A DNA stretch of 64,000 bases, from IMG/VR virus record IMGVR_UViG_3300045988_143165, positions 3,410-67,409 of that record, one strand, 5' to 3'. Positions within the stretch are counted from its first letter, which is position 1. The number at the start of each line of letters is the position of its first letter. The notes beneath the pieces are model-generated. The model did not search any database. It saw nothing but the letters and a program-made list of their open reading frames with translations, and was not told the origin of the DNA. The translations under genes and the position numbers were made by a program. Of the stretch, positions 26,970-63,250 are shown in pieces. Source of the DNA: a virus.

Positions 26970-27035
26970 TTAGATATTATAGCACACATTTTACTATTTG
27001 TCAAGTGTTTTTCTCAATATTATTTCTAATTATTT
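26970..27035 (-). promoter_or_regulatory. consensus sigma-A-type promoter with conserved upstream element (P1)
   Basis: Minus sense: TTAGAAATAATATTGAGAAAAACAC, TTGACA, 17 nt, TATAAT. Confidence 0.55.
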
Positions 27036-27200
27036 GAAATTTATTCGATGCGGTAATTTTAACATCTAATAATACTATTGCACTACCAACTGTGCTACAT
27101 CCCATCTTCGATGGAATGGTGGGAGTCGAACCCACGACACATAGTTCCTTGATATATAGAAGGATGATGTTGGTCAGCCGCATATTTTGTATTGTGGAAA
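27030..27200 (-). ncRNA. Y-RNA-like structured RNA carrying a permuted tRNA-like module (unit c)
   Basis: Order on the minus strand: helix 1, internal loop, helix 2, AUCCUUCUA loop, ACTAT, variable GTGTC, T-arm GTGGG-TTCGACT-CCCAC, CATTCCA, loop TCGAAGA, TGGGATG, TA, D-arm GCAC-AGTTGGTA-GTGC, A, ATAGT, 7 nt, helix 2', loop, helix 1'. Acceptor-like strands pair 7/7 (one G-U) and anticodon-like strands 5/5, but the acceptor is capped by a loop. Confidence 0.55.
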
Positions 27201-27476
27201 TTTGTTTCTCTAAAATCTTAATCCCAAATCAAGTGCCTATTGGCGTAGAAGGATGAAAAACAATAGCCACATAATATTTAGAAAGAAGTGTGGGAATTTA
27301 ATGCTCTTTTTAGAAGAATTTGCAGTTCTTGATATTATGTAGAAGGATGAGCATTACAGCCACAAATTATGAATAGTGGAAATCGAACTTTCTATCTTAT
27401 CATCATTATGTAGGTGGCTTAACCACCGAAATTATTTTCTTGTAGAAGGAAGAAAGCCCATAGCCACAAAATACTT

Positions 27477-29726
27477 TTATAATAACTGACCCATAAAGTA
27501 ATCAGTATCGAAAGCCGTGATAATCGGAACTTCCGGCTTTTCCTTTACAACAGGTTTTGTAGTACCCGTAACCTCGTCAAGCTCATTTACAATTTCATAA
27601 GGTACTGTTGTATCATTGCTGAAAATGATGTCTGCTTCATTTCTATCTGTGACAATACTACCTCTTGCAATAGCATTCATCATTATGAGGTCATAAATAT
27701 TTGCCTTATTAAGATGTGTTAAGCCATAGCAAGTTGCGGTTACACCGTGTAAATTACTTTCAAGATTATTTCCATAAAACCTCGAACTTGCATTCTGAAG
27801 GTTCATATCACACCAAATGAATTTACGCTCAACGCAATCGAATATAACGGGTATAGCAACAGTGCTGTCAGCAGTTAAGTCAATCTTCATTTCAACTGTT
27901 TGCGGCTCGAATATCTCGCCGCTATTTATATCTTCTCTTTCCATCCATCCAAAACGGCAATTAGGAAGCGTAGAAAAATGCTGTCCTGTAAAACTATAAA
28001 CCTGAAATGCAATGTATCTACCAGTGTTTTTAGCAACTGCATCAATCTCTACATCAATAAACTCTGCTACACCATCACCATTAACATTTCCGCCATTGGT
28101 AATATCACCCGAATGATATGCTCTGTACTTTGCAGAGCGAAGTTGTGTGTATGATACACGGTCAACATACTGCCAATTTTCATCATAGATGGTTGCAGAA
28201 AGGTCAATATCAACCCTGCTTTCATCCCAGCTATTTCTCGTCTTATCGGTATTAGTCCACCAAATAAAACCACGAACAGCCGTAGCATCTTCCTTAATGG
28301 GCAATTTACTACCACGAACAATGGTCTTAACAGCCTTACTTGCACTTCTCTGACTAAACGGAACAAGGTAGTTTTTGAAATCCTCATCAATATAAACCTT
28401 TCCGAGAAAATCTTTTTCCTTGTACTGTTCAATTAAAGCCTCACGGCAAATCCTTGCAACATTTTTACATACATTGCTATTGATTTTAGGAAGTTCATTT
28501 CTGATAACCATAGCTTTTGCAAGGTTTCCTTTAGGAAAGAATACTCTTACAGGCTGATTATCATTCTCCATTCTTCCTATGAAATGCTGTCTTACCTGAA
28601 GGAGTACAGGAGTTGAGATTTCTGTTGCAACTTCCTTAAAACAGTTGACAATATAATTCGGATTATCTGCATCACGAACAAGTTTGTCAAGTTGCCTTGC
28701 GAACTCTCCGGGTCTTACTTTTAACAAGGTGGCAGCTTCACGCATATCTTTTGCGGTAATTGCTGCCTGAACCTTTCCTGCAAACATAAGAGGCTTTTTC
28801 TCGTTTCTTAAAGTATTGAATGCAGCGTTGACATTGCTATACTTTGCTTTTTTATATTCAAACGGATGAAGAATTTCTGCAACTCTAATCCATTCATACT
28901 GATAACGGAATAAATCCTCTGTTATGTTACCACAACCAGTAAGCAAGTCCATAATCATACGGCGTTCAACCCTACGAAGATTTCTGTACTTGGTTTTTGA
29001 AGCAAGGCTAATGTCGCCATCGGAAAGTGCTGTTACAAGTCGTAAAACATCCGTTGCGGTCTTGAAGTATTTGCCTATTGAATCGGCGCTTTTGATTGGC
29101 GCTTTTTCAATAATGAGTTTTCCAACGAATGCAACATTCTCTTTAAGAGGGATTGTATCAGGAAGATATGTAGTATAATCAGGACAAGCAAGAATGATAG
29201 TTTCAATGTCCTCTTTGTCCTGCTCCGAGATTGATGTCTTGCTCTCAACAAGATTTGTGAAAATAGTCATCAAATCATCGTGACTTCCTACTGATAAAAC
29301 AGCCATTTTATTGTCATCAATAAGCGGTAAACGCTCATTTTTTTCGTATTCGGGAATCAATGTGCCAAATGACCAGTAATGAACGATTGCATTGATAAAT
29401 AACTCAATGTCACTTGCTTCTGCAACCTGCTGTGGGAAGTTCGGGTACATTGGATTATATGTAACATCCGCACCAACAAGTTCTTTAAGTGCAGGAATAA
29501 GGAAACCATAGAAAGCAGTAAACTCATCTCTTGTAAAATGAAATGCTTTTTCAATAAGTTCCTTTGAAAATGTAAATCCAAGAGCCTGAACATTTTTCAA
29601 GCCGGAAACAACGAGTGCTTTTTCTGTCTTGCTCTGCTCATAAGTCATATTAGCAGGTTCAAACATCACTGAATGCTTACGGCGTAACAAAATCTTATCA
29701 AGTTCTGTTAATTTGAAATTCTTCAT
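27477..29726 (-). CDS. large hypothetical protein (749 aa). Alpha-helical N-terminal ~480 aa plus a C-terminal beta-rich region with a possible vWA-like DxSxT segment. Candidate RNA-binding partner of the flanking structured RNAs
   Basis: Long intact ORF with RBS aaaggagattattacaATG, flanked on both sides by the structured-RNA units. No secure motif recognised. A Ro60/TROVE-like assignment is only a hypothesis. Confidence 0.45.
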   Translation of the reverse strand: MKNFKLTELDKILLRRKHSVMFEPANMTYEQSKTEKALVVSGLKNVQALGFTFSKELIEKAFHFTRDEFTAFYGFLIPALKELVGADVTYNPMYPNFPQQVAEASDIELFINAIVHYWSFGTLIPEYEKNERLPLIDDNKMAVLSVGSHDDLMTIFTNLVESKTSISEQDKEDIETIILACPDYTTYLPDTIPLKENVAFVGKLIIEKAPIKSADSIGKYFKTATDVLRLVTALSDGDISLASKTKYRNLRRVERRMIMDLLTGCGNITEDLFRYQYEWIRVAEILHPFEYKKAKYSNVNAAFNTLRNEKKPLMFAGKVQAAITAKDMREAATLLKVRPGEFARQLDKLVRDADNPNYIVNCFKEVATEISTPVLLQVRQHFIGRMENDNQPVRVFFPKGNLAKAMVIRNELPKINSNVCKNVARICREALIEQYKEKDFLGKVYIDEDFKNYLVPFSQRSASKAVKTIVRGSKLPIKEDATAVRGFIWWTNTDKTRNSWDESRVDIDLSATIYDENWQYVDRVSYTQLRSAKYRAYHSGDITNGGNVNGDGVAEFIDVEIDAVAKNTGRYIAFQVYSFTGQHFSTLPNCRFGWMEREDINSGEIFEPQTVEMKIDLTADSTVAIPVIFDCVERKFIWCDMNLQNASSRFYGNNLESNLHGVTATCYGLTHLNKANIYDLIMMNAIARGSIVTDRNEADIIFSNDTTVPYEIVNELDEVTGTTKPVVKEKPEVPIITAFDTDYFMGQLL

Positions 29727-29821
29727 TGTAATAATCTCCTTTGTTTTAATTTGTCGGTAATCATTGAAACTATTTAGAACCCAATTTCTTTAATAGAAGG
29801 AAGTTTCAATATAGCCGTTAA

Positions 29822-29966
29822 GGGAAATTTGATGGAAATTTTATACTCTATTCTTGTAGGCGCTCTATCCGATTGAGCTAACTACCCACGGGGTAGTGCC
29901 GGGCTTGAACCGACAACCTCCTGCTTAACAGGCAAAAGATTTAGAAGGATGAGTATTTTCAGCCAT
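29822..29966 (-). ncRNA. Y-RNA-like structured RNA carrying a permuted tRNA-like module (unit g), immediately 3' of tRNA-Lys
   Basis: Same architecture as unit c. T-arm GTCGG-TTCAAGC-CCGGC, ACTACCC, loop CGT, GGGTAGT (7/7 complementary), TA, D-arm GCTC-AATCGGATA-GAGC, anticodon-like stem CCTAC/GCAGG (4/5). Clamp helices ttgatgg/ccatcaa and atactc/gagtat covary with unit c. The D-arm and variable region resemble the adjacent tRNA-Lys. Confidence 0.55.
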
Positions 29967-29968
29967 CA

Positions 29969-30044
29969 ATGGTGTGCCAGAGAGGAATCGAACCTCCGAC
30001 CTACCGATTAAAAGTCGATTGCTCTACCGATTGAGCTACTGGCA
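29969..30044 (-). tRNA. tRNA-Lys (anticodon TTT)
   Basis: Anticodon stem ATCGA/TCGGT, loop CTTTTAA, T-arm GGAGG-TTCGATT-CCTCT, CCA encoded. Confidence 0.8.
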
Positions 30045-30052
30045 CATATATA

Positions 30053-30128
30053 TTGGGTGGAAGTAAAGGAATTGAACCTTTTCTTGCAGTGTCACAAACT
30101 GCCGTGCTTACCGTTACACTAACAACCA
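30053..30128 (-). tRNA. tRNA-His (anticodon GTG) with encoded G-1
   Basis: Anticodon stem GCAGT/ACTGC, loop TTGTGAC, extra 5' G opposite discriminator C, two U-U pairs in the acceptor stem, CCA encoded. Confidence 0.7.
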
Positions 30129-32791: not shown

Positions 32792-32992
32792 ATTTAACTC
32801 CCTCTTATTTCTTTATATTTCTCTTTATATCTAAAAATCGAGCCATAGGTCTCGCACCTATGGGAGCAATGGCTGGATTAGTCTGCGCACAACGTACCAA
32901 CAATTATCTCTCTTAATTACTTTCTATTTTTACATTGCTTTTTCAAACGCCGATACTTTTAAGGAACTTTCTTTTTGGTCGAACATTCTGGA

Positions 32993-33070
32993 GTCGAACC
33001 AGAGCCGCGACTTCACCGCCGCTATGCTACCGTTACACCATTAGTTCTAATTCCTGCCACCCATTCAGTG
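32993..33070 (-). other. tRNA-like fragment ending in CCA (possible attP core or pseudo-tRNA)
   Basis: T-arm TCTGG-TTCGACT-CCAGA, then ATGTTCG-A-CCA. The upstream part has a GAA-containing hairpin but no canonical 5' acceptor or D-arm. A promoter lies upstream and the flotillin gene follows. Confidence 0.3.
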
Positions 33071-33234
33071 ATTGTACGGTCTTTCTGAATGGTTCGTACA
33101 TTGTGGCATATCCTCGTAAGGCTTTGCTGTTCACTACTCGATTGTTATTTATTTAATTTTGCGTTGCTCAATATTATTTCTTAATGCATTTAGAATTGCC
33201 GACCTTTTAGGTCAGCACTCTTGATTACTTCTAT

Positions 33235-33290
33235 ACTATATCATATATTTAGGTGTTTGTCAAGAGGTTTTGCAAAATTATTTTTTTAAG
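33235..33290 (-). promoter_or_regulatory. consensus promoter with conserved upstream element (P9)
   Basis: Minus sense: TTGACA, 17 nt, TATAGT, preceded by TAAAAAAATAATTTTGCAAAACC. A downstream hairpin GCTGACC/GGTCGGC lies at 33199-33217. Confidence 0.5.
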
Positions 33291-34827: not shown

Positions 34828-34992
34828 TTTATCAACCTCTTTTTTGCGTATTTCTCAATACGATTTTTAATGTACTCATATAATAGCATACATATCTCCA
34901 TTTGTCAATAACATTTTTGAAAAAAATCAAAATTATTTCTAATTTTCGTGAAAATTAAGATATGTTTTGAAATTATCATATATTCCAAATTT

Positions 34993-35760
34993 CTAATTTG
35001 AATGATATTCAAAGCACGGCATTAACTGTAACTTGAACATATTTTTTTCGTGCATTTCGTTAATTTTTGCCTTTACTTTTTCGTCATCACATATTCCAGT
35101 TCTTATATACTTATCAAGAACTGCATAGGTGAAGCCAAAACTATCTTCATCTGTCTTTCCACAAAGTCCATCTGTCGGAGTTTTGTGTGCAAGCTCATTA
35201 GGTAAGCCACAATCCTCTGCTATGGCAATTACTTCTGTTTTTGTAAGCATTGCAAGAGGACTAAAATCTCCTGCTGCATCACCGTATCGTGTAGAATAAC
35301 CGATATAATCTTCCGAAAGATTGCAGGTATTCATTACTCTGCCATTCATTGATTGAGATACAGCATATAATGTAGCCATTCTCAAACGAGCAGGAAGATT
35401 GATTTTAGTCTGTTCTGAAATATCAATAGGATAATAACCGTCAAAATTTGGGTCATAGTAATCATCAATATTACAGATTATTCCATTGTATGCTTGTTCA
35501 ATATTAACCTCTGTATATTTGATACCAAGATGTGAAACCAACTTAATAGCAGAATCAATATCTTTCTGCACGCCATTTGGCATAAGCACACCAAATACCC
35601 TGTCTTTCCCAAGTGCTTCAACGCACAAAGCAGCAACCGTGCTTGAGTCTATGCCACCTGAAATTCCGATAATAGCATTACAGTCTTTTCCATTTTTTTT
35701 AAATATATCTCTTATCCATTCAACAACATCATTTTTGACTTTTATTACATCAAATGTCAT
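34993..35760 (-). CDS. nadE: NH3-dependent NAD+ synthetase
   Basis: PP-loop GISGGIDSS. About 255 aa, typical NadE size. Distal part of the NAD+ salvage gene set. Confidence 0.8.
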   Translation of the reverse strand: MTFDVIKVKNDVVEWIRDIFKKNGKDCNAIIGISGGIDSSTVAALCVEALGKDRVFGVLMPNGVQKDIDSAIKLVSHLGIKYTEVNIEQAYNGIICNIDDYYDPNFDGYYPIDISEQTKINLPARLRMATLYAVSQSMNGRVMNTCNLSEDYIGYSTRYGDAAGDFSPLAMLTKTEVIAIAEDCGLPNELAHKTPTDGLCGKTDEDSFGFTYAVLDKYIRTGICDDEKVKAKINEMHEKNMFKLQLMPCFEYHSN

Positions 35761-37220
35761 TAGAACTTACCTCCGTGCAATGTATTTCTTACTTCCGAAA
35801 GAGAGTATTCTTTTATCATCTTACCATCACTGAATATAGGCTGGAGCATATTATTCTCGTTATACGCCTCTGCCCAGGTATGACCATCTGTAAATGTGAG
35901 GTCTGAATTTACAATACAACAACCTTTTTGTGATTTCTTAAATCCACCGTCTTTTGGATTCTTAAAAATCGGCACAGATTTTCCGTTAATCTCACAATAT
36001 GTTGCTTTAATGCAAGAACTAAAGGTATCACGGGTAAAAGGCTTTAGAATACCATCTTCCTCAATGCACTGGAATGAGAAAGAACCAACTCCAAGCGCAA
36101 CGTTTGAGCAAGCAAAACCATTCTGCATAAGGATTTCATAGATTTGCTCACATCTCTGTACCGTAATACTATCACCATAAATAGCCTTAACGTGTGGGTC
36201 AAGTACTTTATATCCCTTGCTGTTTACTGTTCCGCCAAAAATATCCCACAGTTTGAATACTGTCCTTGTAACAACCTCAACACAATCACCGGAATCTCCA
36301 CGCATAAGCATACAACCATTGTGTGACATAATTTCAGGTTTTAATTCAGGAAGAACATTATCAATTATGTTCCAGTAATCATATGAATCAAGCACAGCGG
36401 AAAACGAATTATTGGGATAAATTTCCGCTAAAAGTCTGCGAAGAAGCGTAATTTCATCACCATCGACTGCATAATTACTACACATAACTGAATGCTCTGT
36501 GCTGGGTGAACCAAATGCCACAGGTTCTTTTGTGCAATCGCAATTATACATTGCCTCAAGATAGGGAACTGTCGGAACGGTTGCAGTATTCAAAAATGAC
36601 ATACACCAACCTGCACCAGCTTTAATTGCTGATTCTGTGCATTCCTCGCCTCTGAAATCAAATGCTCCGAGTGCTTTTGACTTTGGAACATCATCATCAC
36701 AAGTCAGGTCGTAATATTTATTTACAATCTGACGATATGTATATCCGACTGTTGCAGCCAACATAGGATGCCAGCTTTCAGCAGAAATAAGGCTTTCAAG
36801 AGCTTGTGGAAGCCAAGCGAAATCAGAATGTGTATTTGTAATTCCAAACATCGGAACGTGCATCGGTACAAGTGTTCCTTCAGGAAGTGCCACAATCTTA
36901 ATCGGAAGATAGCCGAGTTTGTGAAGTTCTTCAATCTTCTTAATACCGTAAACATTCTCTCCAAGAGAAGCATCCATAATTCTCTTATAATTTGCGATAA
37001 CCTCGTCAAAAGGTTTATTGAAAAATTCTTCGTTGAAATAATCAATAAGGTATGTTTTTATAAAACCCTGCAACCCAAACATAACAACCTTATCCCATCT
37101 CTTAACTCTCGTCATTCTCGGAGTAAAATAAGATACTGATTTTGTGATTCCTTTGGGCAACATTTCTGCGTGTACTGCCTTATAAAAATCAATAAGCAAC
37201 ATAGGATTTATCTTTCTCAT
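35760..37220 (-). CDS. nadV: nicotinamide phosphoribosyltransferase (NAMPT/NadV family)
   Basis: Aligns with human NAMPT along its length (IDFYKAVH/TDSYKVTH, LPIKIVALPEG, VLDSYDYWN/VSDSYDIYN, LMRGDSGD/IIRPDSGN, NSKGYKVL). RBS taaGGAGaattgaaATG at MRKINP. Confidence 0.85.
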   Translation of the reverse strand: MRKINPMLLIDFYKAVHAEMLPKGITKSVSYFTPRMTRVKRWDKVVMFGLQGFIKTYLIDYFNEEFFNKPFDEVIANYKRIMDASLGENVYGIKKIEELHKLGYLPIKIVALPEGTLVPMHVPMFGITNTHSDFAWLPQALESLISAESWHPMLAATVGYTYRQIVNKYYDLTCDDDVPKSKALGAFDFRGEECTESAIKAGAGWCMSFLNTATVPTVPYLEAMYNCDCTKEPVAFGSPSTEHSVMCSNYAVDGDEITLLRRLLAEIYPNNSFSAVLDSYDYWNIIDNVLPELKPEIMSHNGCMLMRGDSGDCVEVVTRTVFKLWDIFGGTVNSKGYKVLDPHVKAIYGDSITVQRCEQIYEILMQNGFACSNVALGVGSFSFQCIEEDGILKPFTRDTFSSCIKATYCEINGKSVPIFKNPKDGGFKKSQKGCCIVNSDLTFTDGHTWAEAYNENNMLQPIFSDGKMIKEYSLSEVRNTLHGGKF

Positions 37221-37231
37221 TTCAATTCTCC

Positions 37232-38368
37232 TTATACTGCATAATGAATGTTCTTGGTAGGACATCTTGAAAAACTCAAATATTCAACCTCTGTTGACCT
37301 TGCACAATCAACAACCTCTTTACAATCATCATCCTGTGAATATTTGATTTGAATATTTTCAGGACTAATACAATAGAGAAGTTTTTCAACATTATATTCT
37401 GCATCCGATACATTGAAATCAACTCTTACAAAATCATTACCTTTCTTATCTTCAAGCCATAAATAATCTTCATAATCTCCGAACATATCCAAACCGTAGT
37501 TTTTGTGCTGTGCTGTGAGTCCATTCTTATAATGAAGAACAATATTATATCTTAAATAATTATTAAGATTTACAATGTTCAAATCTTTAATAGCTTCCTT
37601 AAATGAAATTCCTGTGTTAATTTCAAATGCGATAGCTCTTAAACAGTCATAATTCAAATTTACTTTTCTTGAAAAAGCGATAATAGAATCAATCTCACCG
37701 TAATACTGTTCATCAAGTTTATCAATAAGATATTCCCGAACTTCCGTTGGTGTCGGATAATCAAATCTGAAATGATAATGAAATCTTCCCGGTCTGTTTA
37801 TTAGATAATTGTTTAACTTACCGAGGTCATTACAAGTAATAACAAACAATTTTTTGCCACCAGAAACACCATCAAATAAGCTCAAAAGATTTGCCTGTGG
37901 AGAAGCCTCTCCATCTCCTGCCTTTACTTCTCCAAATGTCTTATCGAACTCATCAAACAAAACCATAACCTCTTGGTCAATGCTTTCAATATATGATGCA
38001 ATGCCAGGAATATACCTATCTACAACAATAAGTGGAATATCTTTCTTCTGTGCTTCAATAGATAATAGCCTTGCAAATAAAGATTTGCCAATACCCTTAT
38101 CTCCACTTAAAATAACGCCAAGATTTCTGTTAAATTTGTCAAATGAGTTCAAAACCTTATTTACTTTTTCGATATGTACTCCGTAAACTTTATCTTCTTT
38201 TACTTCAATATCGACATACTTTTCAAGATAAAATCCCTTAAATTGACTAAATCTCACAACATAACTTTGTGTTGGAAATTTTTCATATGTTTTTAATGTA
38301 TCATCAAAAACCTCATATGAATTTCCAGAACTAATAACCTTCACTTTATTTTTCCCCCTAATCAACAT
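37232..38368 (-). CDS. AAA+ ATPase
   Basis: Walker A GDKGIGKS, Walker B VLFDEFD, sensor ITCN, RPGRF arginine-finger region. Embedded between nadV and prs. Confidence 0.6.
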   Translation of the reverse strand: MLIRGKNKVKVISSGNSYEVFDDTLKTYEKFPTQSYVVRFSQFKGFYLEKYVDIEVKEDKVYGVHIEKVNKVLNSFDKFNRNLGVILSGDKGIGKSLFARLLSIEAQKKDIPLIVVDRYIPGIASYIESIDQEVMVLFDEFDKTFGEVKAGDGEASPQANLLSLFDGVSGGKKLFVITCNDLGKLNNYLINRPGRFHYHFRFDYPTPTEVREYLIDKLDEQYYGEIDSIIAFSRKVNLNYDCLRAIAFEINTGISFKEAIKDLNIVNLNNYLRYNIVLHYKNGLTAQHKNYGLDMFGDYEDYLWLEDKKGNDFVRVDFNVSDAEYNVEKLLYCISPENIQIKYSQDDDCKEVVDCARSTEVEYLSFSRCPTKNIHYAV

Positions 38369-39261
38369 AAAATTAACTGGTCAATGCCCGAAAGCAATTC
38401 GGACAATTCTCTTGCAATTTCTGCTTGATATTCAAATACCTGTATCTTATCTGATAAGCCAAGAGAATTTGCATACTCTTTAACTTTATCAGTAAAAATA
38501 CTATTAGTAGTAAATACCTTTTTAATCAAACCACTTTTGAAAATTTCTCCATCAAAGATAGTTTTCTCGCAATGTGATATGTAAAGATATACATTCTTTG
38601 CACCGAGTTCTTTTAATTTCTTTGCTGAAAAATAGAATGTACCACCTCGGCTACTGATGTCATCAACAATGATAATATTGCTGTCATTGATTAAATCTTT
38701 TGCACCTGAAACATCAAGTCCTTCGATTTTTCCTGTTTCCCAATTACGCTTTTTAATTCCAAAAGCATAAGGCATATCGAGCATACCGGAATATCTTTTC
38801 ATTGCTCCTTCGTCTGGATAAAAAGCAATAAGAGGTTCATCATTGATTTCGTTTTTAATTTCCTTTATTACCTTTTCGATATAAGGTTTAGGGCTTTCAA
38901 CTTCGATATTGTTAATTAGAGCCTCACTGACAGATGAATGTGGGTCAAGAACAACAACCTTATCAAAATTAAGATTATTGATAAACTCTGCAAAATACTT
39001 TAATGTAAATACATCATTTTCGCTCTTTACCCTATCCTGTCTGGCATTTGGAATGTAAGGCATAACAAGATTTACTTTGTTAGCTCCAATTCTCCTTACG
39101 TGATTTGCAAGGAACATTATGGCAATCATTTCCTCATTGCTTTCAAAATGCCAACAAATAGTAACTGTATGATTGAAAATAAATTCAACATTAGGATTGA
39201 GTCTTAATGTTTCATCGGGAAACTTATTTATTGTTATTTTTTTTCCGTTAATTAAAATCAT
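38362..39261 (-). CDS. prs: ribose-phosphate pyrophosphokinase family (PRPP synthetase, or an ADP-ribose pyrophosphokinase Adps-like enzyme)
   Basis: MPYIPNARQDR (compare PYFGYARQDR) and IIVDDISSRGGT (PRPP-binding loop). Confidence 0.75.
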   Translation of the reverse strand: MILINGKKITINKFPDETLRLNPNVEFIFNHTVTICWHFESNEEMIAIMFLANHVRRIGANKVNLVMPYIPNARQDRVKSENDVFTLKYFAEFINNLNFDKVVVLDPHSSVSEALINNIEVESPKPYIEKVIKEIKNEINDEPLIAFYPDEGAMKRYSGMLDMPYAFGIKKRNWETGKIEGLDVSGAKDLINDSNIIIVDDISSRGGTFYFSAKKLKELGAKNVYLYISHCEKTIFDGEIFKSGLIKKVFTTNSIFTDKVKEYANSLGLSDKIQVFEYQAEIARELSELLSGIDQLILC

Positions 39262-39263
39262 AA

Positions 39264-39791
39264 TTATTCTCCTATAATATCAATCTGACACATCTTCATA
39301 GTAAGAAGTGCTGCCTTATGGCTTTCAGGTGTAACACCGGCACAGCAAGATACATCAACTGCAATGTGAATTTCTGGATAATTCGCTTTCAATAAAAGCG
39401 CATTGGAAACCACACATATATCTGTGCAAAGTCCGACCAATTCGATATATTCAATATTTTCTCCACAAATAAGTTCGGGAAGTGCCGTACTTCCAAATGT
39501 TCTTTTCTGCACATACAATATACTATCTTTACTTTCAAATAGAGCTTTTTGAACCCTCGTATTGATTCTATGACCATAGGTATTTTTAATACAATGCTCT
39601 ACCGGTAAACACTTACCTTCATTCGTATTCAAATAATCATCGCTGTGGGTATCAAGTGTAGCGATAATATCACCATCCCAATTATTGATTTTTTCAATGA
39701 CATTAGGAATAATTGCGACAGCTTCCGGAGTTCCAAGAGAGCCGTCAACAAAATCATTCTGCATATCGACTACAATCAAAAGTTTTTTCAT
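39264..39791 (-). CDS. pncA: nicotinamidase / isochorismatase-family hydrolase
   Basis: VVDMQNDF N-terminus, metal-site LDTHSDDY..PVEHCIKNTYGH and catalytic Cys in LVGLCTDICV, matching the PncA signature. Confidence 0.7.
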   Translation of the reverse strand: MKKLLIVVDMQNDFVDGSLGTPEAVAIIPNVIEKINNWDGDIIATLDTHSDDYLNTNEGKCLPVEHCIKNTYGHRINTRVQKALFESKDSILYVQKRTFGSTALPELICGENIEYIELVGLCTDICVVSNALLLKANYPEIHIAVDVSCCAGVTPESHKAALLTMKMCQIDIIGE

Positions 39792-41026: not shown

Positions 41027-41671
41027 TTAATTTTCTTTTTCATTCTGATTTCTTTCGTTCCCTCTGAACAATTCCGGGAATGCTCTTGGTCTATAACATT
41101 TATTTTGAATATCTGCTATTGTAGTTGACAGAGCCTCGAGAGACGATTTATCAAATTTACATTGCTTTATCAAATTTAATACTGCAATTTCATTTTTATA
41201 TTTTCTTCTCTGCTGCAAAGTATTTTGCAACATTTTGAAACACATCCACCCTTGATAGCAGTTGAATTTTCCAAATTCTATGTAATGTTGAATATCAACA
41301 ATTTCTTTGTCGATTTCACTTAACTTGGCTACGAGTTCATCTTTCCTTGTATCAGAACCAGATAATACATTCATAATTGTATTAACTTTTTCACGCCAAT
41401 CATCAATATTGCCATCATCAATGGCACGAAAACAAAGTTCCTTTTGTTTACTCATATCGTCTTTCTCGATAATGTTTTCTGTGTCAATAAGTTGCACGGC
41501 ATAATTATTTCTAATTGACTTTGCTAATGAGTTATTCAAAACAGAATGAGCTTTTACTTGGCTATCCCATTGTTGTGCCTGTTTAAAACTTCGGACAGGT
41601 ACATATCTTCCTGTTAAATTGTCTTTTCGGATATAGTTTCCTTGCCCATCTGTTAAGACATAAACACCCAT
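41027..41671 (-). CDS. hypothetical protein
   Basis: ORF with RBS aggag upstream. A promoter-like element lies upstream. Confidence 0.4.
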   Translation of the reverse strand: MGVYVLTDGQGNYIRKDNLTGRYVPVRSFKQAQQWDSQVKAHSVLNNSLAKSIRNNYAVQLIDTENIIEKDDMSKQKELCFRAIDDGNIDDWREKVNTIMNVLSGSDTRKDELVAKLSEIDKEIVDIQHYIEFGKFNCYQGWMCFKMLQNTLQQRRKYKNEIAVLNLIKQCKFDKSSLEALSTTIADIQNKCYRPRAFPELFRGNERNQNEKEN

Positions 41672-41768
41672 TTTAATCTCCTGCTTTCTTGATATTGTAT
41701 TTAGTGTTTCTCAATATTATTTCTAAAAGGATTTTTATATAGGCTGCCGAAACAGCCTATATTTCCTG

Positions 41769-42758: not shown

Positions 42759-42837
42759 AATTACACACCTCTTAATATTATGACAATTTAATTATAGCAA
42801 GTTAAGAGTTATCTGTCAAGACTTTTCAATAGTGTTT

Positions 42838-43233
42838 TTAAACTGTTACCAGCACAGGAAATTGAATAGCGATAGCATTACTAATATTACATAATGTTTC
42901 TTTATCGCTTACTTTTCCAATACATTTATCAAGACATTCAATAGTAATTGTTGTAATCTGTTCTACAAGCAATGTACTCGGTGTCTTGAGTCCATACTTT
43001 TGATAACTCCACAACTCAACGTGTACCGGCAACTTTCTTTTATTCATTTTAGAAGTCAACGGAATTATGTTAAGTGTAGTGCTATATGTATTGTTTTTGT
43101 CATTAGAGAGAATAAAAACAGGTCTATATCCACTCTGAATACTACCATCTTTAGAAGTCAGATAGCACATCCAAATTTCGCCGCAGCGTGGGTATTCATT
43201 TAAGTTAGTCTTATTAAGCATAATCCATACCAC
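42838..43233 (-). CDS. MazF/PemK-like toxin endoribonuclease (solitary)
   Basis: YPRCGEIWMCYL...GYRPVFILSN...LNIIPLTSK matches the PemK/MazF fold signature. No antitoxin ORF of 60 aa or more lies adjacent. Confidence 0.5.
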   Translation of the reverse strand: MVWIMLNKTNLNEYPRCGEIWMCYLTSKDGSIQSGYRPVFILSNDKNNTYSTTLNIIPLTSKMNKRKLPVHVELWSYQKYGLKTPSTLLVEQITTITIECLDKCIGKVSDKETLCNISNAIAIQFPVLVTV

Positions 43234-43344: not shown

Positions 43345-43430
43345 ATTATAGTAAATCTGTTACTATAATGATTGTAACATAAGGTGTGTTGTTTGTCAAT
43401 AGTTTTCTCAATATTATTTCTAAAATTAAG
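43345..43430 (-). promoter_or_regulatory. consensus promoter plus palindromic operator (P3)
   Basis: Minus sense: TTAGAAATAATATTGAGAAAACTA, TTGACA, 17 nt, TACAAT, then TAGTAACAGATTTACTA downstream. Confidence 0.5.
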
Positions 43431-45009: not shown

Positions 45010-45100
45010 TGTAGTAAATCATTTACTATGGATAGTATATCATATGTATGCCAGAATGTCAATAATATTTTTGAATTTTCTCAATATTATTTTTAATCCC
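45010..45100 (-). promoter_or_regulatory. consensus promoter plus palindromic operator (P4)
   Basis: Minus sense: AAAAATAATATTGAGAAAATTC.., TTGACA, 17 nt, TATACT, then TAGTAAATGATTTACTA. Confidence 0.55.
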
Positions 45101-46262: not shown

Positions 46263-46643
46263 TTATCCTATAGTGAGAATAGCTGGATTGACTACCCCAT
46301 CGCCTTCATAGTTATATTCTTTGTTGTGCCATTTCCTTAATTCCTCTCCGTATTCCCAAAGTTGAGACAAGGCATTAACAGCACAACCATACATAAAACC
46401 AGTAATACCCTCTGTATCTGCTTCACGAGATGTACTATCTGCTATATCGACAATTTTATCCCCCGAAGCAATTCTGGATTCCATAAGATTTGCCCATCTT
46501 TCTGCATACCGCACAACTGCATTTGAATAAGGGTCTTTACTGTTTACTGTAACAAACTGATTATAATTTTCCTCTTGACCTGCTTTAATTTTCATTTGAT
46601 TTTCCTCCAATAATTTTAATCCGAGTAAAGTATTTAGTATCAA
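46263..46643 (-). CDS. hypothetical protein
   Basis: ORF. Confidence 0.35.
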   Translation of the reverse strand: MILNTLLGLKLLEENQMKIKAGQEENYNQFVTVNSKDPYSNAVVRYAERWANLMESRIASGDKIVDIADSTSREADTEGITGFMYGCAVNALSQLWEYGEELRKWHNKEYNYEGDGVVNPAILTIG

Positions 46644-52019: not shown

Positions 52020-52105
52020 TGTAGTAATTCATTTACTATAATCATTATAGCAAACGCTTTTATATTTGTCAAGCATTTTTCTCAAAATTATTTCTAATTC
52101 TGTGA
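52020..52105 (-). promoter_or_regulatory. consensus promoter plus palindromic operator (P5)
   Basis: Minus sense: TTAGAAATAATTTTGAGAAAAATGC, TTGACA, 17 nt, TATAAT, then TAGTAAATGAATTACTA. Confidence 0.55.
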
Positions 52106-53568: not shown

Positions 53569-53834
53569 TCCTTTCTATTCTGACATACAAACACCTTATA
53601 ATCATCAATATACATTTGTCTTGCCTGGGCTTTGGTATAACCGTAGTATTGTTTTACTCCGTCTATACCATAAACCACCCACGCACCTCTGATGTTCTTT
53701 TCCATAAAGAACACAATACCACGGTTAATTGTTGCCATCGTAAATGTACTCTCTATCTCCGGTAATATATTTTTTATAATCAACTCTGATGAGTTTCTCA
53801 TTACCGACTGTCTTTGCTCCGCTGCCGAAGGCAA
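53562..53834 (-). CDS. hypothetical protein
   Basis: ORF. Confidence 0.3.
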   Translation of the reverse strand: MPSAAEQRQSVMRNSSELIIKNILPEIESTFTMATINRGIVFFMEKNIRGAWVVYGIDGVKQYYGYTKAQARQMYIDDYKVFVCQNRKEC

Positions 53835-54045
53835 TTCTTCCGTTCATTCCGACAAAGTTAATTGTAATATCACGGTTTACCGCCATAATCTCGGCATAAC
53901 ATCTTTCAGTGGGTTTTGCTCCGTCTGTAAATGTAAATCCTTCAGATTCAGCCTGTTTCATAAACTGATTCCCAGTTTCCGAATCTCCGAGATAAACATA
54001 TACTCTGCCATTCTTTTTTACAAGTTCTTTAATTGTTCTGTTCAT
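53725..54045 (-). CDS. hypothetical protein
   Basis: ORF. Confidence 0.3.
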   Translation of the reverse strand: MNRTIKELVKKNGRVYVYLGDSETGNQFMKQAESEGFTFTDGAKPTERCYAEIMAVNRDITINFVGMNGRIAFGSGAKTVGNEKLIRVDYKKYITGDREYIYDGNN

Positions 54046-54221
54046 AGTAATTTTTCCTCTCTAATTTAATTATTAGAGCGTATAAGAAAATCCCATCGTC
54101 ACCGATAGGATTTGATAATCAATTTTCCTATCGGTCAAGCATTAGCACCTTACCTGTTGGCAGGTTGCTGTGCGGTCATAGGGCTTGCTCCCTCACACAC
54201 TCTTAATAGGGTATTTTTATT

Positions 54222-54285
54222 ATATAACATAATTTTTGATTTGTCAATAACAATTTTGCAATTTCTCAAAATTATTTTTAGTCAA
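54222..54285 (-). promoter_or_regulatory. consensus promoter with conserved upstream element (P6)
   Basis: Minus sense: AAAAATAATTTTGAGAAATTGC, TTGACA, 17 nt, TATAAT. Confidence 0.5.
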
Positions 54286-54577
54286 CTTCAAGAAAATTGT
54301 TCACATTAACATCAAATGCAACAGCAAGCATACATAATTTTAGCAATGGAACTTTTACATTTTCACGGCTTCTATTAAGCCAAGAATAAATTGAATCCTT
54401 TTTGCTTTTGGTAATATCTATTAGCTTATCCATTTTTACATTATATGATTCTTTGCATTCAGGATATTTAGCATAGAGATATTTTTCTACATTATCGGCA
54501 ATAACAGATTGGTTTGTATTTTCCCATTGTGAGTTGAATTGTAAAACTTGTGCTGCAAACTGTTTGCTATATTTCAT
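54278..54577 (-). CDS. XRE-family HTH transcriptional regulator
   Basis: C-terminal HTH-like SIYSWLNRSRENVKVPLLKLCMLAVAFDV. Confidence 0.45.
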   Translation of the reverse strand: MKYSKQFAAQVLQFNSQWENTNQSVIADNVEKYLYAKYPECKESYNVKMDKLIDITKSKKDSIYSWLNRSRENVKVPLLKLCMLAVAFDVNVNNFLEVD

Positions 54578-54643
54578 TCAAACTCCTCCAACATATAATA
54601 GTATGGTAATCTATTTACTATTATACTATGTAATATTCTTTTG

Positions 54644-55258
54644 TCAATTTCTTTCTGTGAATACATTAGCATATTGCACACCAAATTTACGAGCATCTTC
54701 GTGATTATCAAAGTATATATCAATACTGTTTCCTTTAATTGCTCCACCACAATCCTGTGCCTCATATTTGTGACCGTTTATGTAAACAATAGCACCATAT
54801 GGAAGAACCGAAGGGTCTGCTGCAATAGTATAATCTGATTTTGCAATTTTTCCTGATGCAGTATATACAATTTCATTACCGTCTTTGTCTATCGGTCTGT
54901 TACTTGCATACTGTTCACAACAAACTGAACACGAGCAATACACCGCCAAACGAAATTCTCCAAGATTTATATATTCAGGCATATTGCCCTCTGTATTGCC
55001 CCGTGTTGCATTTTCAGGCTCTTTGCTTGTATTTATATTCATAAGCATAGTTTGCACCGTAGGTGTGCCTTTCTGCTCAATCAATGACACATTTATATTG
55101 TCTGGTGTCATTGCCACTACTTTTGAATGTGAACAGATAAAGAATATTCCCATAACAACGGCAAGAATTATAACAAATGTAATTGCTGCCATAGTGAAAT
55201 ATTGCCAAGTCAATTTCCCTTTGTTACTCATTCTTTTTGTAAATTTATTATCTTTCAT
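54644..55258 (-). CDS. membrane-anchored 3D-domain protein (cell-wall binding/hydrolase-like)
   Basis: N-terminal TM and a C-terminal YTASGKIA..DYTIAADPS..YEAQDCGGAIKGNSIDIYFD 3D-domain pattern. Second 3D-domain protein in the window. Confidence 0.5.
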   Translation of the reverse strand: MKDNKFTKRMSNKGKLTWQYFTMAAITFVIILAVVMGIFFICSHSKVVAMTPDNINVSLIEQKGTPTVQTMLMNINTSKEPENATRGNTEGNMPEYINLGEFRLAVYCSCSVCCEQYASNRPIDKDGNEIVYTASGKIAKSDYTIAADPSVLPYGAIVYINGHKYEAQDCGGAIKGNSIDIYFDNHEDARKFGVQYANVFTERN

Positions 55259-60157: not shown

Positions 60158-60175
60158 TCAATAAGATTTTCAACT

Positions 60176-60397: not shown

Positions 60398-60448
60398 AAC
60401 TTTCGTGCCACTTAATCCAAGTTTTAATTTTCATAGCAATTTCCTCTC

Positions 60449-60667
60449 TTACTTATCAAGTCTTTTCTTCTCTTTGAACTGTCTGCCGGTTGTGTATGAG
60501 TCATATAGTTCATCAACCACCGCAACGGTTATATGATTTCCATTTGCTTTTTCTGTTTCTCTTGCTTGTGTCACCGCTTCTTCGAGAGAACAAGCACAGC
60601 ACCATTGTATATGTGTTCCTTCAACAACTCCGTTTTCATCTTTATCTACTTGAAGTAGCATATACAT
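60449..60667 (-). CDS. hypothetical protein
   Basis: ORF. Confidence 0.3.
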   Translation of the reverse strand: MYMLLQVDKDENGVVEGTHIQWCCACSLEEAVTQARETEKANGNHITVAVVDELYDSYTTGRQFKEKKRLDK

Positions 60668-60669
60668 TG

Positions 60670-61095
60670 TTAGATACCTCTCTTAATCCAGTTGGCAAGA
60701 TTCTGAACTCTGCCCTCTATCATATAGTAGCCGTCTCTGCTTTCATCGCAGATGGAGACTTGTGTGTGGTCGTTGCCGTTGTCCTTGTAGTAGACCATCA
60801 GTGCCGTGTCGCTCTGGATTTCAACCTTGTAGTTACATAGTCTCAATACCGAAGCAGCATCTTCGATACTGCCGATAATCACGAACTTCGGACTATAAAG
60901 AGTGCCAGCATTGCGAACATAATATCTCTTGCGGTTAAAGGTGATATACTGCTTTGCTCCGTCATCCTGAATTTTGCAGGTCTTTCGGCACTCACCATCA
61001 GAGATAACCAAATCACCATAAGGTTGGATTCTTTTATTTTCATAATATGGAATGGTGTAGTTTTTTAATGCTTCAATCTTAATCATTTTATACAT
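60670..61095 (-). CDS. hypothetical protein
   Basis: ORF. Confidence 0.35.
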   Translation of the reverse strand: MYKMIKIEALKNYTIPYYENKRIQPYGDLVISDGECRKTCKIQDDGAKQYITFNRKRYYVRNAGTLYSPKFVIIGSIEDAASVLRLCNYKVEIQSDTALMVYYKDNGNDHTQVSICDESRDGYYMIEGRVQNLANWIKRGI

Positions 61096-61108
61096 CTTAT
61101 TTTACTCC

Positions 61109-61519
61109 TTACTTTATAAAAATGTAGGCACCGCCATCATAGTAATTAAAATCGAAATGGTAATTTTCCTTTAACCATTGGTGGAAACTATCATCATAAT
61201 ATGTGACTTGTTTTATAGGCTTTATGAATGTCAATAATTCAATAAAGCAACCTCTTACACCGTCAATAGTTGATTCTGAAATTACTTCTAATTTTCCCTT
61301 AAAACTGGAACATACGGCTAAAAACTGTGTCCTACAAATATTCGGATTTGTTTTGCTTTCCGTTCTCTTTACAACTACAACGGAATATTTGCCATTGCCA
61401 CCCATAAAAGCATTATAAAATTTACGTGCGTTATGTTTTCTTTCTGCTTTTGATATTCTCATATTATAAACTCCTATCAATAGTAATATCTCTTTACTTA
61501 AATAATCTTGATGAGTCAA
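61109..61519 (-). CDS. hypothetical protein
   Basis: ORF. Confidence 0.35.
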   Translation of the reverse strand: MTHQDYLSKEILLLIGVYNMRISKAERKHNARKFYNAFMGGNGKYSVVVVKRTESKTNPNICRTQFLAVCSSFKGKLEVISESTIDGVRGCFIELLTFIKPIKQVTYYDDSFHQWLKENYHFDFNYYDGGAYIFIK

Positions 61520-61763
61520 AAAGTATTAGCTTTTTACTGTTAGTTTCTCTTGCAGCTGTAAAATGAAAAGCGCTTCTTGCAATTCCTGATAAGAACTTAT
61601 CATCTCCGAGAATAACCCTTGCTTCTTTATGGCTTATTCTTTTGTTATCAAGTGTATAGTTTGTCTTTGTTACAGCCTTGTCTATTTGTATTATGTCGGA
61701 ATTACTGTAATTCAATGTTTTAAGAACTTTTATGTCTTGTTCTGATAAATTTCTGATTGCCAT
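61494..61763 (-). CDS. hypothetical protein
   Basis: ORF. Confidence 0.3.
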   Translation of the reverse strand: MAIRNLSEQDIKVLKTLNYSNSDIIQIDKAVTKTNYTLDNKRISHKEARVILGDDKFLSGIARSAFHFTAARETNSKKLILFDSSRLFK

Positions 61764-61800
61764 ATTTAGCCCTCCATATATGTGTTTCCCTTACTTGTTT

Positions 61801-62307
61801 TTAGTATTCAAGTTTTAACTTACCGTGGCAGCATCCGCAACGGTAACGGTCTGTATTAGTTATCAATTTGCTCATCTTTGTTCTTGTGTAGATGTGTCCG
61901 CAGTCAAGGCATACAACCTTATGATTGATTTCTCTTTGTTTCACGGGAGGTCTTGTTTCTTCAAGCACACCCTTGTCGGTTGCTGAATTTGTCCTTTTGA
62001 TATTATAACCATAAGCTCTATTAACTTTTTGTGCTAATCGCTTCCAGTTATTGCCGTGATTCATACAGCCTTTGCAACTATGCAGCAACTCGTGATGAAT
62101 TGTCTCCTTGAGTCCTTTTACATCGTTTCTCTCATCAAGCAATACATTACTAATGTTTATCGAATATCCGCCTGGAACAGCCTTGCATTGCCCCCATCTT
62201 TTCTTTGCTCTTGTATTTACTGTGAACTCAATAATATTTCCATACTCAATTCCGATATTATCAAGCTCTGTCATACATTCTATTGCATACGCTGTTAAAT
62301 CTCTCAT
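61801..62307 (-). CDS. SprT-like zinc metalloprotease
   Basis: HEXXH (IHHELLHSC) plus a C-terminal zinc ribbon CLDCGH...CGCCHG. Confidence 0.55.
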   Translation of the reverse strand: MRDLTAYAIECMTELDNIGIEYGNIIEFTVNTRAKKRWGQCKAVPGGYSINISNVLLDERNDVKGLKETIHHELLHSCKGCMNHGNNWKRLAQKVNRAYGYNIKRTNSATDKGVLEETRPPVKQREINHKVVCLDCGHIYTRTKMSKLITNTDRYRCGCCHGKLKLEY

Positions 62308-62312
62308 TGTGT

Positions 62313-62564
62313 TTATCTCCTTTTACCGTGTATGCTTAATTTATCAATATAATATCTATATTCTGATGATTCATAATAATATGGGCTAAACTGCTTTGGA
62401 TTGTCGCCACGACTTTCAATAAACTTCTGTGCCTTTTCAAGTTTGAAAAATGCTTCGTCTAAATTTCTTGAACCCCATTCATCTCGTGCCTGTACTCTGA
62501 CTACATAAATCTTTGTAACTTTCATTTTGTTTTTACTCCTATTCTTTGTGATGTAGTAAATCAT
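62313..62564 (-). CDS. hypothetical protein
   Basis: ORF immediately downstream of promoter P7. Confidence 0.35.
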   Translation of the reverse strand: MIYYITKNRSKNKMKVTKIYVVRVQARDEWGSRNLDEAFFKLEKAQKFIESRGDNPKQFSPYYYESSEYRYYIDKLSIHGKRR

Positions 62565-62635
62565 TTACTATACACATTGTAACATAGGTTTAACCATTTG
62601 TCAAGCGTTTTTCTCAAAATTATTTCTAACTTTTT
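62550..62635 (-). promoter_or_regulatory. consensus promoter plus palindromic operator (P7)
   Basis: Minus sense: TTAGAAATAATTTTGAGAAAAACGC, TTGACA, 17 nt, TACAAT, then TAGTAAATGATTTACTA. Confidence 0.55.
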
Positions 62636-62664
62636 AAGAAAAATCCTGTTGCCAGGAATTTTCT

Positions 62665-62895
62665 TTAATTATGTTCTTTTTGTCTTTTAATGTCTGCTCT
62701 GATTAACTCTTTAAGATAACCGGATTTATTTTTTTGACTTTCAAGCTGCTCAATAATATCCGTCTCGTGTGAGAACACTCGCAAGCCATATGTCTTGCTG
62801 GGATGTGTCTCGTGGTATCGTGCCTGATTTGCATAGCCGTTTTTTCTGTTATATTCTTTGTTATAATCAAGTTTTTTCTGACTGCTCTTTGGCAT
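62665..62895 (-). CDS. hypothetical small basic protein
   Basis: ORF. Confidence 0.3.
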   Translation of the reverse strand: MPKSSQKKLDYNKEYNRKNGYANQARYHETHPSKTYGLRVFSHETDIIEQLESQKNKSGYLKELIRADIKRQKEHN

Positions 62896-63215
62896 ATAAA
62901 GCTCCTTCTTATTTGAATTTTTTTAATTTTTTAAGATATTTTTTCCTTGCCTTTTGATTTGGTAAGCTCTGAATATATTTTAGGTGTTGTTCCATATCCT
63001 CAATAGGAGGATTAGCCGGCTGTGCTGCCTTTATAATGCTATATACAGCCCATACAAGCAATATCAATATTGTAACTAATAGATACACTGTATCACGCTC
63101 CTACCTGTAATGTCGGAGAATTTTCCGGCATTCTCTTTTTGATTTACCCATCATCTGGTCTGTCGTATGTTCCGATTGTGATTTGTTTCTCGGCATATCA
63201 TATCACCTCTTATAT

Positions 63216-63250
63216 ATTATAACATAGGTTTATACTATTGTCAATAACTT
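63216..63250 (-). promoter_or_regulatory. consensus promoter (P8)
   Basis: Minus sense: TTGACA, 17 nt, TATAAT. Confidence 0.45.

Follow-up and report, generated by a model that had tools for sequence, protein, structure and literature searches.

Introduction

Lambda-repressor-like helix-turn-helix (HTH) proteins of the Cro/cI and SinR type act as dimers on 14-17-bp dyads that overlap promoters, and the host-takeover module of the Bacillus phage SPO1 carries many closely spaced, very strong sigma-A early promoters and small takeover genes on one strand, with no known shared operator. SPO1, a phage unrelated to the one described here, relies for later transcription on phage sigma factors and not on a YonO-type polymerase. 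In the UP-element promoter rrnB P1 of E. coli, the A residues at -41 to -43 are critical and their mutation cripples the promoter (PMC4390567), and AAGAAATAAT is the sequence common to two UP elements bound by the alpha subunit's C-terminal domain (alpha-CTD) in Bacillus (PMC9655642). PeSL cassettes of T4-type phages combine an early promoter with a stem-loop (PMC2839356, PMC4122927), and in the Bacillus phage SPbeta the short element SPBRE is repeated in about ten early promoter regions under one phage repressor, MrpR (PMC10516654). These systems are the closest described counterparts of a family of repeated promoter units on a 64,000-nucleotide (nt) stretch of viral DNA, positions 3,410-67,409 of the IMG/VR record IMGVR_UViG_3300045988_143165, referred to throughout as the window. 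A preliminary description covering window positions 26970-63250 had reported at least nine near-identical minus-strand units and regarded them as host sigma-A early promoters with an UP or activator element and a shared repressor operator.

The complete units join an upstream 22-mer (TTAGAAATAATWTTGAGAAAAA) to a consensus core promoter, followed at four units by a 17-bp palindrome (TAGTAAATnATTTACTA). The 22-mer occurs in three arrangements: in class A it precedes the -35 box by 4-5 nt (62610, 52078, 43404, 27010 and 12296, to which 33268 and 42822 are added as degenerate examples); in class B its core lies 14 nt upstream of the -35 box (54262, 45077 and 34923), the gap being filled by a second conserved block, wTTCAAAAATnTTA; and in class C it is found without a -35 or -10 box (41707, 34851, 33164, 26704, 11945 and 11727). 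The reading we favour, and consider fairly probable, is that the units are UP-element sigma-A cassettes combined with the dyad operator of a 99-amino-acid (aa) HTH repressor. This design is already known; the window holds a clean example that needs no new mechanism, with the class C copies as the one loose end.

With the UP-element promoters (E. coli rrnB P1; Bacillus rRNA, tRNA and PtrxA/PLan promoters) the units share the A/T-rich block from -60 to -39, its register, A at -41 to -43 and the sequence AAGAAATAAT, and an identical 16-mer with TTGACA stands at a Bacillus rRNA promoter and at a clostridial tRNA promoter; unlike them, the phage block is nearly invariant within one genome, G positions included, also occurs without a core promoter, and in three units lies 9 nt away from its usual place, next to another conserved insert with an A-tract. 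As in PeSL cassettes, strong sigma-70-type promoters, A/T-rich upstream, are repeated ahead of accessory or orphan genes in variable regions, and insertion and deletion borders between close relatives seem to cluster near the phage units; the differences are an SPbeta-like phage with a Firmicute host, an operator at some units, and stem-loops at some units only (hairpins adjoin 62610, 41707, 33164 and some relatives' copies, not every unit).

The likeness to SPBRE/MrpR extends from the short element repeated in early promoter regions under one phage repressor to a phage that encodes a YonO polymerase and to regulated genes that include toxin-related ones. The candidate repressor here, however, is a 99-aa lambda-repressor-like HTH protein where that of SPbeta has a tyrosine-recombinase fold, and the element is a 17-bp dyad at +1, the two elements being set apart by description and not by sequence. 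SPBRE/MrpR is a functional analogue in the same broad phage type with another kind of repressor. The 317-aa recombinase of the window keeps R, HxxR, H and Y, and the best matches listed for it, beside 142 others, are ordinary integrases; with these catalytic residues kept, this integrase-like protein is not supported as an MrpR analogue. Cro/cI- and SinR-type operators resemble the palindrome in being dyads of this length with 6-bp outer half-sites one helical turn apart, in overlapping the -10 box or start site, in standing at the repressor's own promoter and in the fold of the matching protein, but the phage locus has no divergent cI/cro switch, its sites are scattered over a 20-kb array, and the 99-aa protein has an extra N-terminal helical part.

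Core promoters and their units

Exact TTGACA-N17-TAYAAT occurs seven times in the window, on the minus strand only, against 0.11 expected from shuffles. For the promoter hexamers TTGACA/TATAAT at 16-18 nt there are 7 exact matches and 13 near-exact ones, which lie between genes or at the ends of genes and on the gene strand, which is minus throughout the window except at 1-1326. Sites scoring 11-12 out of 12 are likewise confined to the minus strand and are intergenic, except for 28662-28690 within a gene. With relaxed settings, a scan assigns 34 promoter-like sites to the minus strand and 20 to the plus strand, and a general sigma-70 scan yields no overall excess (98 vs 95 and 80 vs 74 in shuffles). 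Thirteen sites are probable sigma-A promoters (63216, 62576, 54620, 54219, 52044, 45034, 43371, 42791, 34880, 33235, 26976, 12262 and the doubtful 11747), two of them outside 26970-63250, and most have TG one base ahead of the -10 box.

Because of the consensus -35 box, the 17-nt spacer, the TG-extended -10 box, the intergenic position and the orientation along the gene strand, the assignment of the units to host sigma-A-type promoters, as originally proposed, is supported at the level of sequence. What follows them agrees: the S-adenosylmethionine (SAM) riboswitch begins 7 nt past the -10 box of the 54219 promoter, and non-coding RNA and tRNA genes lie downstream of the 26976 promoter. Gene content, the basis for the term 'early', suggests that the promoters would act early. 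The units and their associated gene are as follows, in window coordinates.

63216-63244 (-): core sigma-A promoter, TTGACA-17-TATAAT, TG-extended but lacking the 22-mer; upstream is the end of coding region 63249-63764.
62554-62629 (-): class A cassette; 22-mer 62608-62629, core 62576-62604, palindrome 62554-62570; closely preceded by a hairpin (62644-62657) that resembles a terminator.
54604-54647 (-): HTH-gene promoter, TTGACA-16-TATAAT at 54620-54647, with an operator-like site TAGTAAATAGATTACCA (54604-54620) overlapping the last -10 base.
54278-54577 (-): gene of the 99-aa lambda-repressor-like HTH protein, candidate for an autoregulated repressor that binds the palindrome.
54219-54283 (-): class B cassette; 22-mer core 54262-54277, conserved insert, core promoter 54219-54247; drives the SAM riboswitch 54125-54212.
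52022-52097 (-): class A cassette; 22-mer 52076-52097, core 52044-52072, palindrome 52022-52038; drives the LPD29-domain gene.
45012-45096 (-): class B cassette; 22-mer 45075-45096, core 45034-45062 (-10 box TATACT), palindrome 45012-45028; drives the tyrosine recombinase gene.
43349-43423 (-): class A cassette; 22-mer 43402-43423, core 43371-43399, palindrome 43349-43365 with 2 inner mismatches; drives the MazF/PemK toxin gene.
42791-42840 (-): core promoter TTGACA-17-TATAAT at 42791-42819 with a degenerate upstream element AAACACTATTGAAAAG.
41705-41726 (-): class C, a perfect 22-mer with neither a -35 nor a -10 box; a strong hairpin (41737-41762) precedes it, and the start codon of 41027-41671 comes 35 nt later.
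34851-34944 (-): class B cassette with degenerate 22-mer, core 34880-34908, and a class C copy (34851-34866) in the 5' leader; conserved in the relatives L023 and L135.
33164-33289 (-): core promoter 33235-33263 with degenerate 22-mer, then a hairpin, then a class C copy (33164-33185).
26976-27029 (-): class A cassette; 22-mer 27008-27029, core 26976-27004; drives non-coding RNAs and the tRNA cluster.
26704-26725 (-): class C copy with the sequence TTAAGAAACATTATTGAGCAA; tRNA-Arg follows about 170 nt downstream.
12262-12315 (-): class A cassette beyond the range of the preliminary description; 22-mer 12294-12315, core 12262-12290.
11725-11966 (-): two class C copies, 11945-11966 and 11725-11746, the latter 18 nt ahead of a start codon; in relatives, insertions or deletions adjoin each of the two.

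The idea of nine like units thus needs revision. The three motifs are real and far above chance, but among the units listed originally the full 22-mer followed after 4-5 nt by TTGACA-17-TAnAAT is present only at 62576, 52044, 43371 and 26976. At 54219 and 45034 the 22-mer lies 14 nt upstream, at 33235 it is degenerate, and 63216 is without it; at 41690-41730, also named as a promoter unit, the 22-mer is present with no -35 or -10 box. Good promoters at 42791-42819 and 54620-54647 had been missed, and a further full class A unit, at 12262-12315, lies beyond the range considered before.

The upstream 22-mer

The 22-mer is found eight times at up to 3 mismatches, on the minus strand only, against 0.03 expected, the copies at 11725 and 12294 lying beyond the range considered before. 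Within class A its pairwise identity is 0.93 and that of the spacer separating the -35 box from the -10 box 0.60; the upstream block is therefore under its own constraint. When the -35 box is set at -35 to -30, the class A 22-mer spans -60 to -39, with A at -41 to -43, and it matches the UP consensus reportedly given by Estrem et al. in 1998 (nnAAAWWTWTTTTnnAAAAnnn) at 11-12 of 15 specified positions, in register. It also contains the decamer AAGAAATAAT, and most copies contain TAGAAATAAT.

The 16-mer joined to TTGACA was searched exactly in 185,579 reference genomes, giving 10 matches, most with a correctly spaced -10 box, which show compatibility with UP function and not a need for TTGAG. 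One is an rRNA promoter of Bacillus haynesii, with the 16S gene about 140 nt downstream, one a tRNA promoter of Ructibacterium (clostridial), and one lies upstream of a Phormidium tRNA array, where no -10 box was found at the right spacing. In distant relatives the promoters remain perfect while the upstream block drifts (to AAACATTnnnGAGAAAAAC in L135, to TTTAGAG and TTCGAG in L138 and to GCAGAAAAAC in L132), and only the A-tract and the A/T richness of the block persist; such drift under perfect promoters fits a degenerate alpha-CTD site. The behaviour of the 22-mer adjoining the -35 box as an UP element is thereby supported, as had been suggested, and by analogy it may bind alpha-CTD and stimulate transcription.

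Four of the class C copies (11945, 26704, 33164 and 34851) had been taken for weaker variants of the promoter units. They do exist; they are not weak promoters, however, and form a separate conserved class without a core promoter. Neither they nor 11727 precede a core promoter. Three class C copies instead follow a class A or B promoter and stand in its leader, and others stand after hairpins, 18-60 nt ahead of a ribosome-binding site. All are asymmetric and co-oriented with the genes, some without room for another promoter, and their TATTGAG core is invariant in the window while the A/T tracts vary (AAACCGT, AAACAGT). In L023 the motif of 41705-41726 is intact although 18 nt of flank have diverged, new class C copies appear in unrelated contexts in L107, L123, L124 and L125, and the non-coding gap that separates the polymerase gene from the late-type genes of relatives begins with a class-C-like copy.

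Inspection by eye gave no consistent fit of the class C copies or the 22-mer to the Bacteroidetes -7 box, to SPO1 late, ECF, T4 late or AR9 late promoters, or to a weak sigma-A promoter with TTAAGA or TTGAGA as -35 box. A likeness to the CodY box (12 of 15 positions) was set aside since a conserved G breaks the dyad, and a search for RNA structure in the class C copies gave no consistent fold.

The palindrome and its candidate repressor

The palindrome has four matches at up to 2 mismatches in the window against 0.11 expected, and each follows a promoter unit, as first reported. In 4/4 units its first base comes 5 nt after the -10 box, so that it covers -1 to +16; relatives mostly keep this spacing, apart from two copies that start 2 and 6 nt past the -10 box. 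Its core AGTAA-N5-TTACT is invariant, and inner positions vary without compensation. An exact search of IMG/VR gives 63 single-copy matches, essentially all of them chance, one being from a relative.

The view of the palindrome as an operator, with the product of 54278-54577 as candidate repressor, gains from the promoter of that gene, where a fifth copy with 3 mismatches overlaps the last -10 base in the window. The predicted operator dyad of the protein can be written as TAGTAAATGATTTACTA. Perfect dyads stand at the HTH-gene promoter in L138, where the protein is 77% identical, and in L133, where it is 56% identical and lies in a different neighbourhood, beside the DNA polymerase III beta gene. 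The dyad thus overlaps promoters including the regulator's own and is conserved together with the regulator. The model of the 99-aa protein (pLDDT 93.4, pTM 0.83) shows a lambda-repressor-like helical fold. Its best Foldseek matches in the PDB include the SinR DNA-binding domain, at a target-normalised TM-score of 0.77 and an rmsd of 2.4, together with the CapH N-terminal domain, C.AhdI, C.BclI and lambda cI; a PDB sequence search gives a single match, again the CapH N-terminal domain (E = 1.3). Homologues number 25, and the protein is present on at least 220 contigs, with sizes up to 907 kb and one source labelled Ruminococcus sp.; a pattern search of IMG/VR found nothing. Because the dyad stands at its own promoter in three lineages and the model is lambda-repressor-like, the 54278-54577 product is likely an autoregulated repressor, predicted from sequence and model to bind the palindrome and control four operons.

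In the proposed mechanism, the host primary (sigma-A) RNA polymerase would read modular promoter cassettes from which one arm of the phage expresses its accessory, anti-defence and RNA genes. At most cassettes the 22-mer would be an UP element, and the promoters would become very strong through the alpha-subunit C-terminal domains that it recruits. The 99-aa HTH protein would bind the dyad as a dimer and prevent initiation both at the promoter of its own gene and at four operons. These start respectively with a small open reading frame (ORF) of unassigned function and then an SprT-like gene (this operon ending in a DarB-like methylase-helicase), with the LPD29 protein, with the recombinase and with MazF. 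The outcome would be a Cro-like or SinR-like shut-off or dosage control.

The XRE regulator at 1-218, the other repressor candidate named at the outset, is not supported in this role. It represents the C-terminal end of an HTH_3 protein of 117-132 aa that forms a pair with an ImmA-type protease (ImmR/ImmA-type), and in a relative the divergent control region of this gene holds other repeats, TTCTTGA/TCAAGAA. A 76-aa protein encoded just upstream of the first dyad-bearing cassette (62665-62895, minus strand) has a ribbon-helix-helix look by eye and no Pfam match, and is from its sequence a possible second regulator. In L135/L136 an IS605-type OrfB/TnpB gene (8656-9843) is inserted just upstream of the HTH gene and displaces its promoter and operator. 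The MazF/PemK gene (42838-43221, minus strand) under a dyad-bearing promoter has no antitoxin ORF visible between promoter and gene.

Genome context

By Pfam, the accessory arm encodes the Thoeris inhibitor Tad4, NAMPT, PRPP synthetase, NadE and isochorismatase, and further a 1020-aa methylase-helicase, an LPD29 protein, an SprT-like protein, MazF, a tyrosine recombinase, SAM synthetase, an NAD-dependent ligase, Thg1 and PTH2, along with 13 tRNA genes. Relatives of the window are many in IMG/VR, ENA and Logan; among GenBank phages no close relative was found, the longest match being 580 bp. Pfam detects no polymerase or sigma factor among about 70 proteins of the window, and the 749-aa protein at 27477-29726, considered as a polymerase, was rejected as lacking the catalytic motif; its L135/L136 homologue has a weak TerD match. 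In relatives, a polymerase gene is seen about 6-8 kb past the right end of the window.

L107 7053-9896 and L143 1-2430 (- in L143): gene of a YonO-like single-subunit two-barrel RNA polymerase, 947 aa, identified by Pfam RdRP and GADKDGD.

The protein combines a Pfam RdRP match of 32.5 bits with the GADKDGD motif, is 29% identical to yonO of Spbetavirus Goe12 and 37-39% identical to proteins of Clostridium phage c-st and Enterocloster phages, and belongs to a family of more than 3,700 members in metagenomes (E <= 1e-30). In relatives a class A cassette drives its gene divergently from the early array, and across a 1.2-kb non-coding region a class-B-like cassette without the TTGAG core opens the array at a SAM-lyase-like gene. 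Since the YonO-type polymerase gene is followed downstream by HU-like, ClpP and YonG_N-domain genes, the phage is taken as SPbeta-like, and the picture is that of a large phage or prophage of SPbeta-like type in a gut Firmicute. Its early arm would be read by the host polymerase, and late genes presumably by the phage's own.

The 1.2-kb non-coding region between the divergent polymerase and early-array promoters (L143 3400-4620, past the right end) holds five iteron-like repeats (ATTGAGGGTTTG) and long CT-rich tracts, and could be an origin of replication or a genome end.

Borders between relatives also concern the cassettes. Synteny breakpoints between the window and its relatives fall within 100 nt of a unit in 18 of 108 cases, against 7.0 expected and at most 16 in 1000 random trials, figures that are uncorrected for the general tendency of breakpoints to be intergenic and for their lack of independence. 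This crude test is suggestive of cassettes at the borders of gained or lost gene blocks, and whole blocks between cassettes are missing in L135 and L129.

Several neighbouring features deserve a record. The SAM-I riboswitch (54125-54212, minus strand; RF00162, 58.7 bits) controls a 106-aa ORF (53725-54045) of unassigned function, and the set of HTH gene, promoter, riboswitch and ORF of about 107 aa is kept in all relatives examined, down to 56% protein identity; SAM synthetase is also phage-encoded (8403-9467), and the first array gene of one relative is SAM-lyase-like. The counter-defence cluster (34993-39791 and 46263-46643, minus strand) comprises NAMPT, PRPP synthetase, NadE and isochorismatase for NAD+ rebuilding, together with Tad4; the NAD block is absent from L135, and in L023 other sequence occupies its position. 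A 399-aa adenylosuccinate-synthetase-like protein (2970-4169, minus strand) could, from its sequence, be a PurZ-type enzyme for 2-aminoadenine DNA.

Near the tRNA cluster, two elements match YrlA, a Y RNA-like tRNA mimic, below threshold (26758-26822 and 27076-27143, minus strand; 35.9 and 21.9 bits against a gathering threshold of 69). Both have a T-arm, a closed acceptor-like hairpin and a D-arm; GGCTG-N9-CATCCTTCTAC occurs six times around them, with repeats across 26780-27500. YrlA-like elements recur in the relatives' non-coding gap upstream of late genes, and weaker look-alikes lie in the yonN-yonK gap of an SPbeta-like phage. A tRNA-like 3' end GGTTCGACTCCAGAATGTTCGACCA with a long upstream insert (about 32975-33100, minus strand) is called by neither ARAGORN nor Rfam.

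Alternative explanations

Several observations weigh against UP-element cassettes under a 99-aa repressor. The 22-mer occurs six times without a core promoter, some of these copies lying in 5' leaders, and is conserved as such in relatives; a plain UP element is insufficient because of these class C copies, and the fixed position that an UP element should hold fails for them and for three copies displaced by 9 nt. The 22-mer is also far more uniform within the genome than usual UP elements, and in the L135 lineage even orthologous promoters have a variant peculiar to it, AAACATTnnnGAGAAAAAC; such uniformity could equally have arisen if the motif co-evolved with a binding protein encoded by the phage. 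On the side of the repressor, L137 is without the dyad at its HTH-gene promoter, the Foldseek E-values of the 99-aa protein are weak (best 0.013), and the protein has no Pfam match even at E <= 5.

The uniformity and the class C copies are what a sequence-specific phage or host regulator would account for, the 22-mer being its site instead of, or in addition to, an UP element. Such a regulator would activate when bound at -50; where the site lies in a 5' leader or immediately ahead of a gene, it would cause repression, stop elongation or serve as a mark. Class C copies that stay intact as flanks diverge, a TATTGAG core that is invariant in the window despite varying A/T tracts, a uniform variant per lineage that includes orthologous promoters, and the five iteron-like ATTGAGGGTTTG copies sharing ATTGAG between the RNA polymerase gene and the early array all suit such a protein. 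We nevertheless consider it unlikely, given that the motif is asymmetric and always points with the genes, which is unusual for a dimeric regulator, that no candidate binding protein was identified, that TTGAG drifts to TTAGAG, TTCGAG, TCGAG and CAGAAA in distant relatives whose promoters are still perfect, and that the same sequence stands at host rRNA and tRNA promoters where the phage factor is absent. The per-lineage uniformity, the enrichment of synteny breakpoints near the units and the presence or absence of whole inter-cassette blocks in L023, L129 and L135 would also follow if recombination between cassettes, as with a PeSL-like linker, were mainly what keeps the upstream sequence uniform, with little transcriptional role. 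Spacers of the same cassettes are not uniform, however (0.60 vs 0.93), so that conversion acting alone would need to end no more than 5 nt from the -35 box, and the register with the UP consensus would be a coincidence; this explanation we regard as unlikely.

A role beyond the UP element can also be sought in RNA or in the phage polymerase. Firmicutes mRNAs are stabilised by 5'-end stem-loops, and as the dyad starts at about -1 to +1, hence at the extreme 5' end of the transcript, the palindrome might act as a stem-loop that shields mRNA from 5'-end-dependent decay. The hairpins are weak (-2.5 to -5.0 kcal/mol, z-scores -0.7 to -2.5), variant copies break inner pairs without compensation, and sequence identity beyond pairing is conserved across relatives; moreover, the dyad at the HTH-gene promoter starts inside the -10 box and is therefore not transcribed whole, leaving no 5' RNA hairpin, which makes this role highly improbable. 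The TTGAG-core 22-mer might otherwise be the promoter or recognition element of the YonO-like polymerase, or of a factor guiding it, with classes A and B as tandem (dual) host/phage promoters and class C read by the phage polymerase alone. That enzyme is encoded just outside the window, and the motif is of about 20 nt, asymmetric, co-oriented with genes and often placed after hairpins or terminators, 18-60 nt ahead of a ribosome-binding site; position 9095 of L125 has no room for another promoter, and the class-C-like copy at the late-gene gap resembles the region of the YonO start site in SPbeta (PMC5467207). Several class C copies, however, lie in leaders just downstream of perfect sigma-A promoters, where a second promoter is unneeded, the motif is degenerate between lineages (GAG to GAA, TTTGGAA), and the exact 18-mer is found only twice in a 91-kb relative contig inferred to be mostly outside the early arm. 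In an SPbeta-like phage, published primers, which bracket the start site only, put the YonO start downstream of the 22-mer-equivalent position, and no 22-mer is present there. The YonO promoter sequence was still undetermined in the 2017 characterisation paper (PMC5467207), and no later work on YonO promoters was found in the literature collection searched. We judge a YonO promoter to be very unlikely.

Conclusion

Read as UP-element sigma-A cassettes with the operator of a candidate 99-aa repressor, the units map out the regulation of a gut phage lineage that is uncultured and very widespread. The map shows which genes stand under strong host-type promoters, namely Tad4, NAD+ salvage, the DarB-like methylase-helicase, MazF and the riboswitch-controlled ORF, and which anti-defence and toxin genes share one candidate repressor. 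It would also supply strong promoter parts and a candidate repressor-operator pair for Clostridia, in a testable autoregulatory circuit. Should a YonO-type polymerase prove to read the promoterless 22-mer copies, the promoter specificity of that enzyme class would be exposed, and this is the only route by which the finding may gain wider interest.

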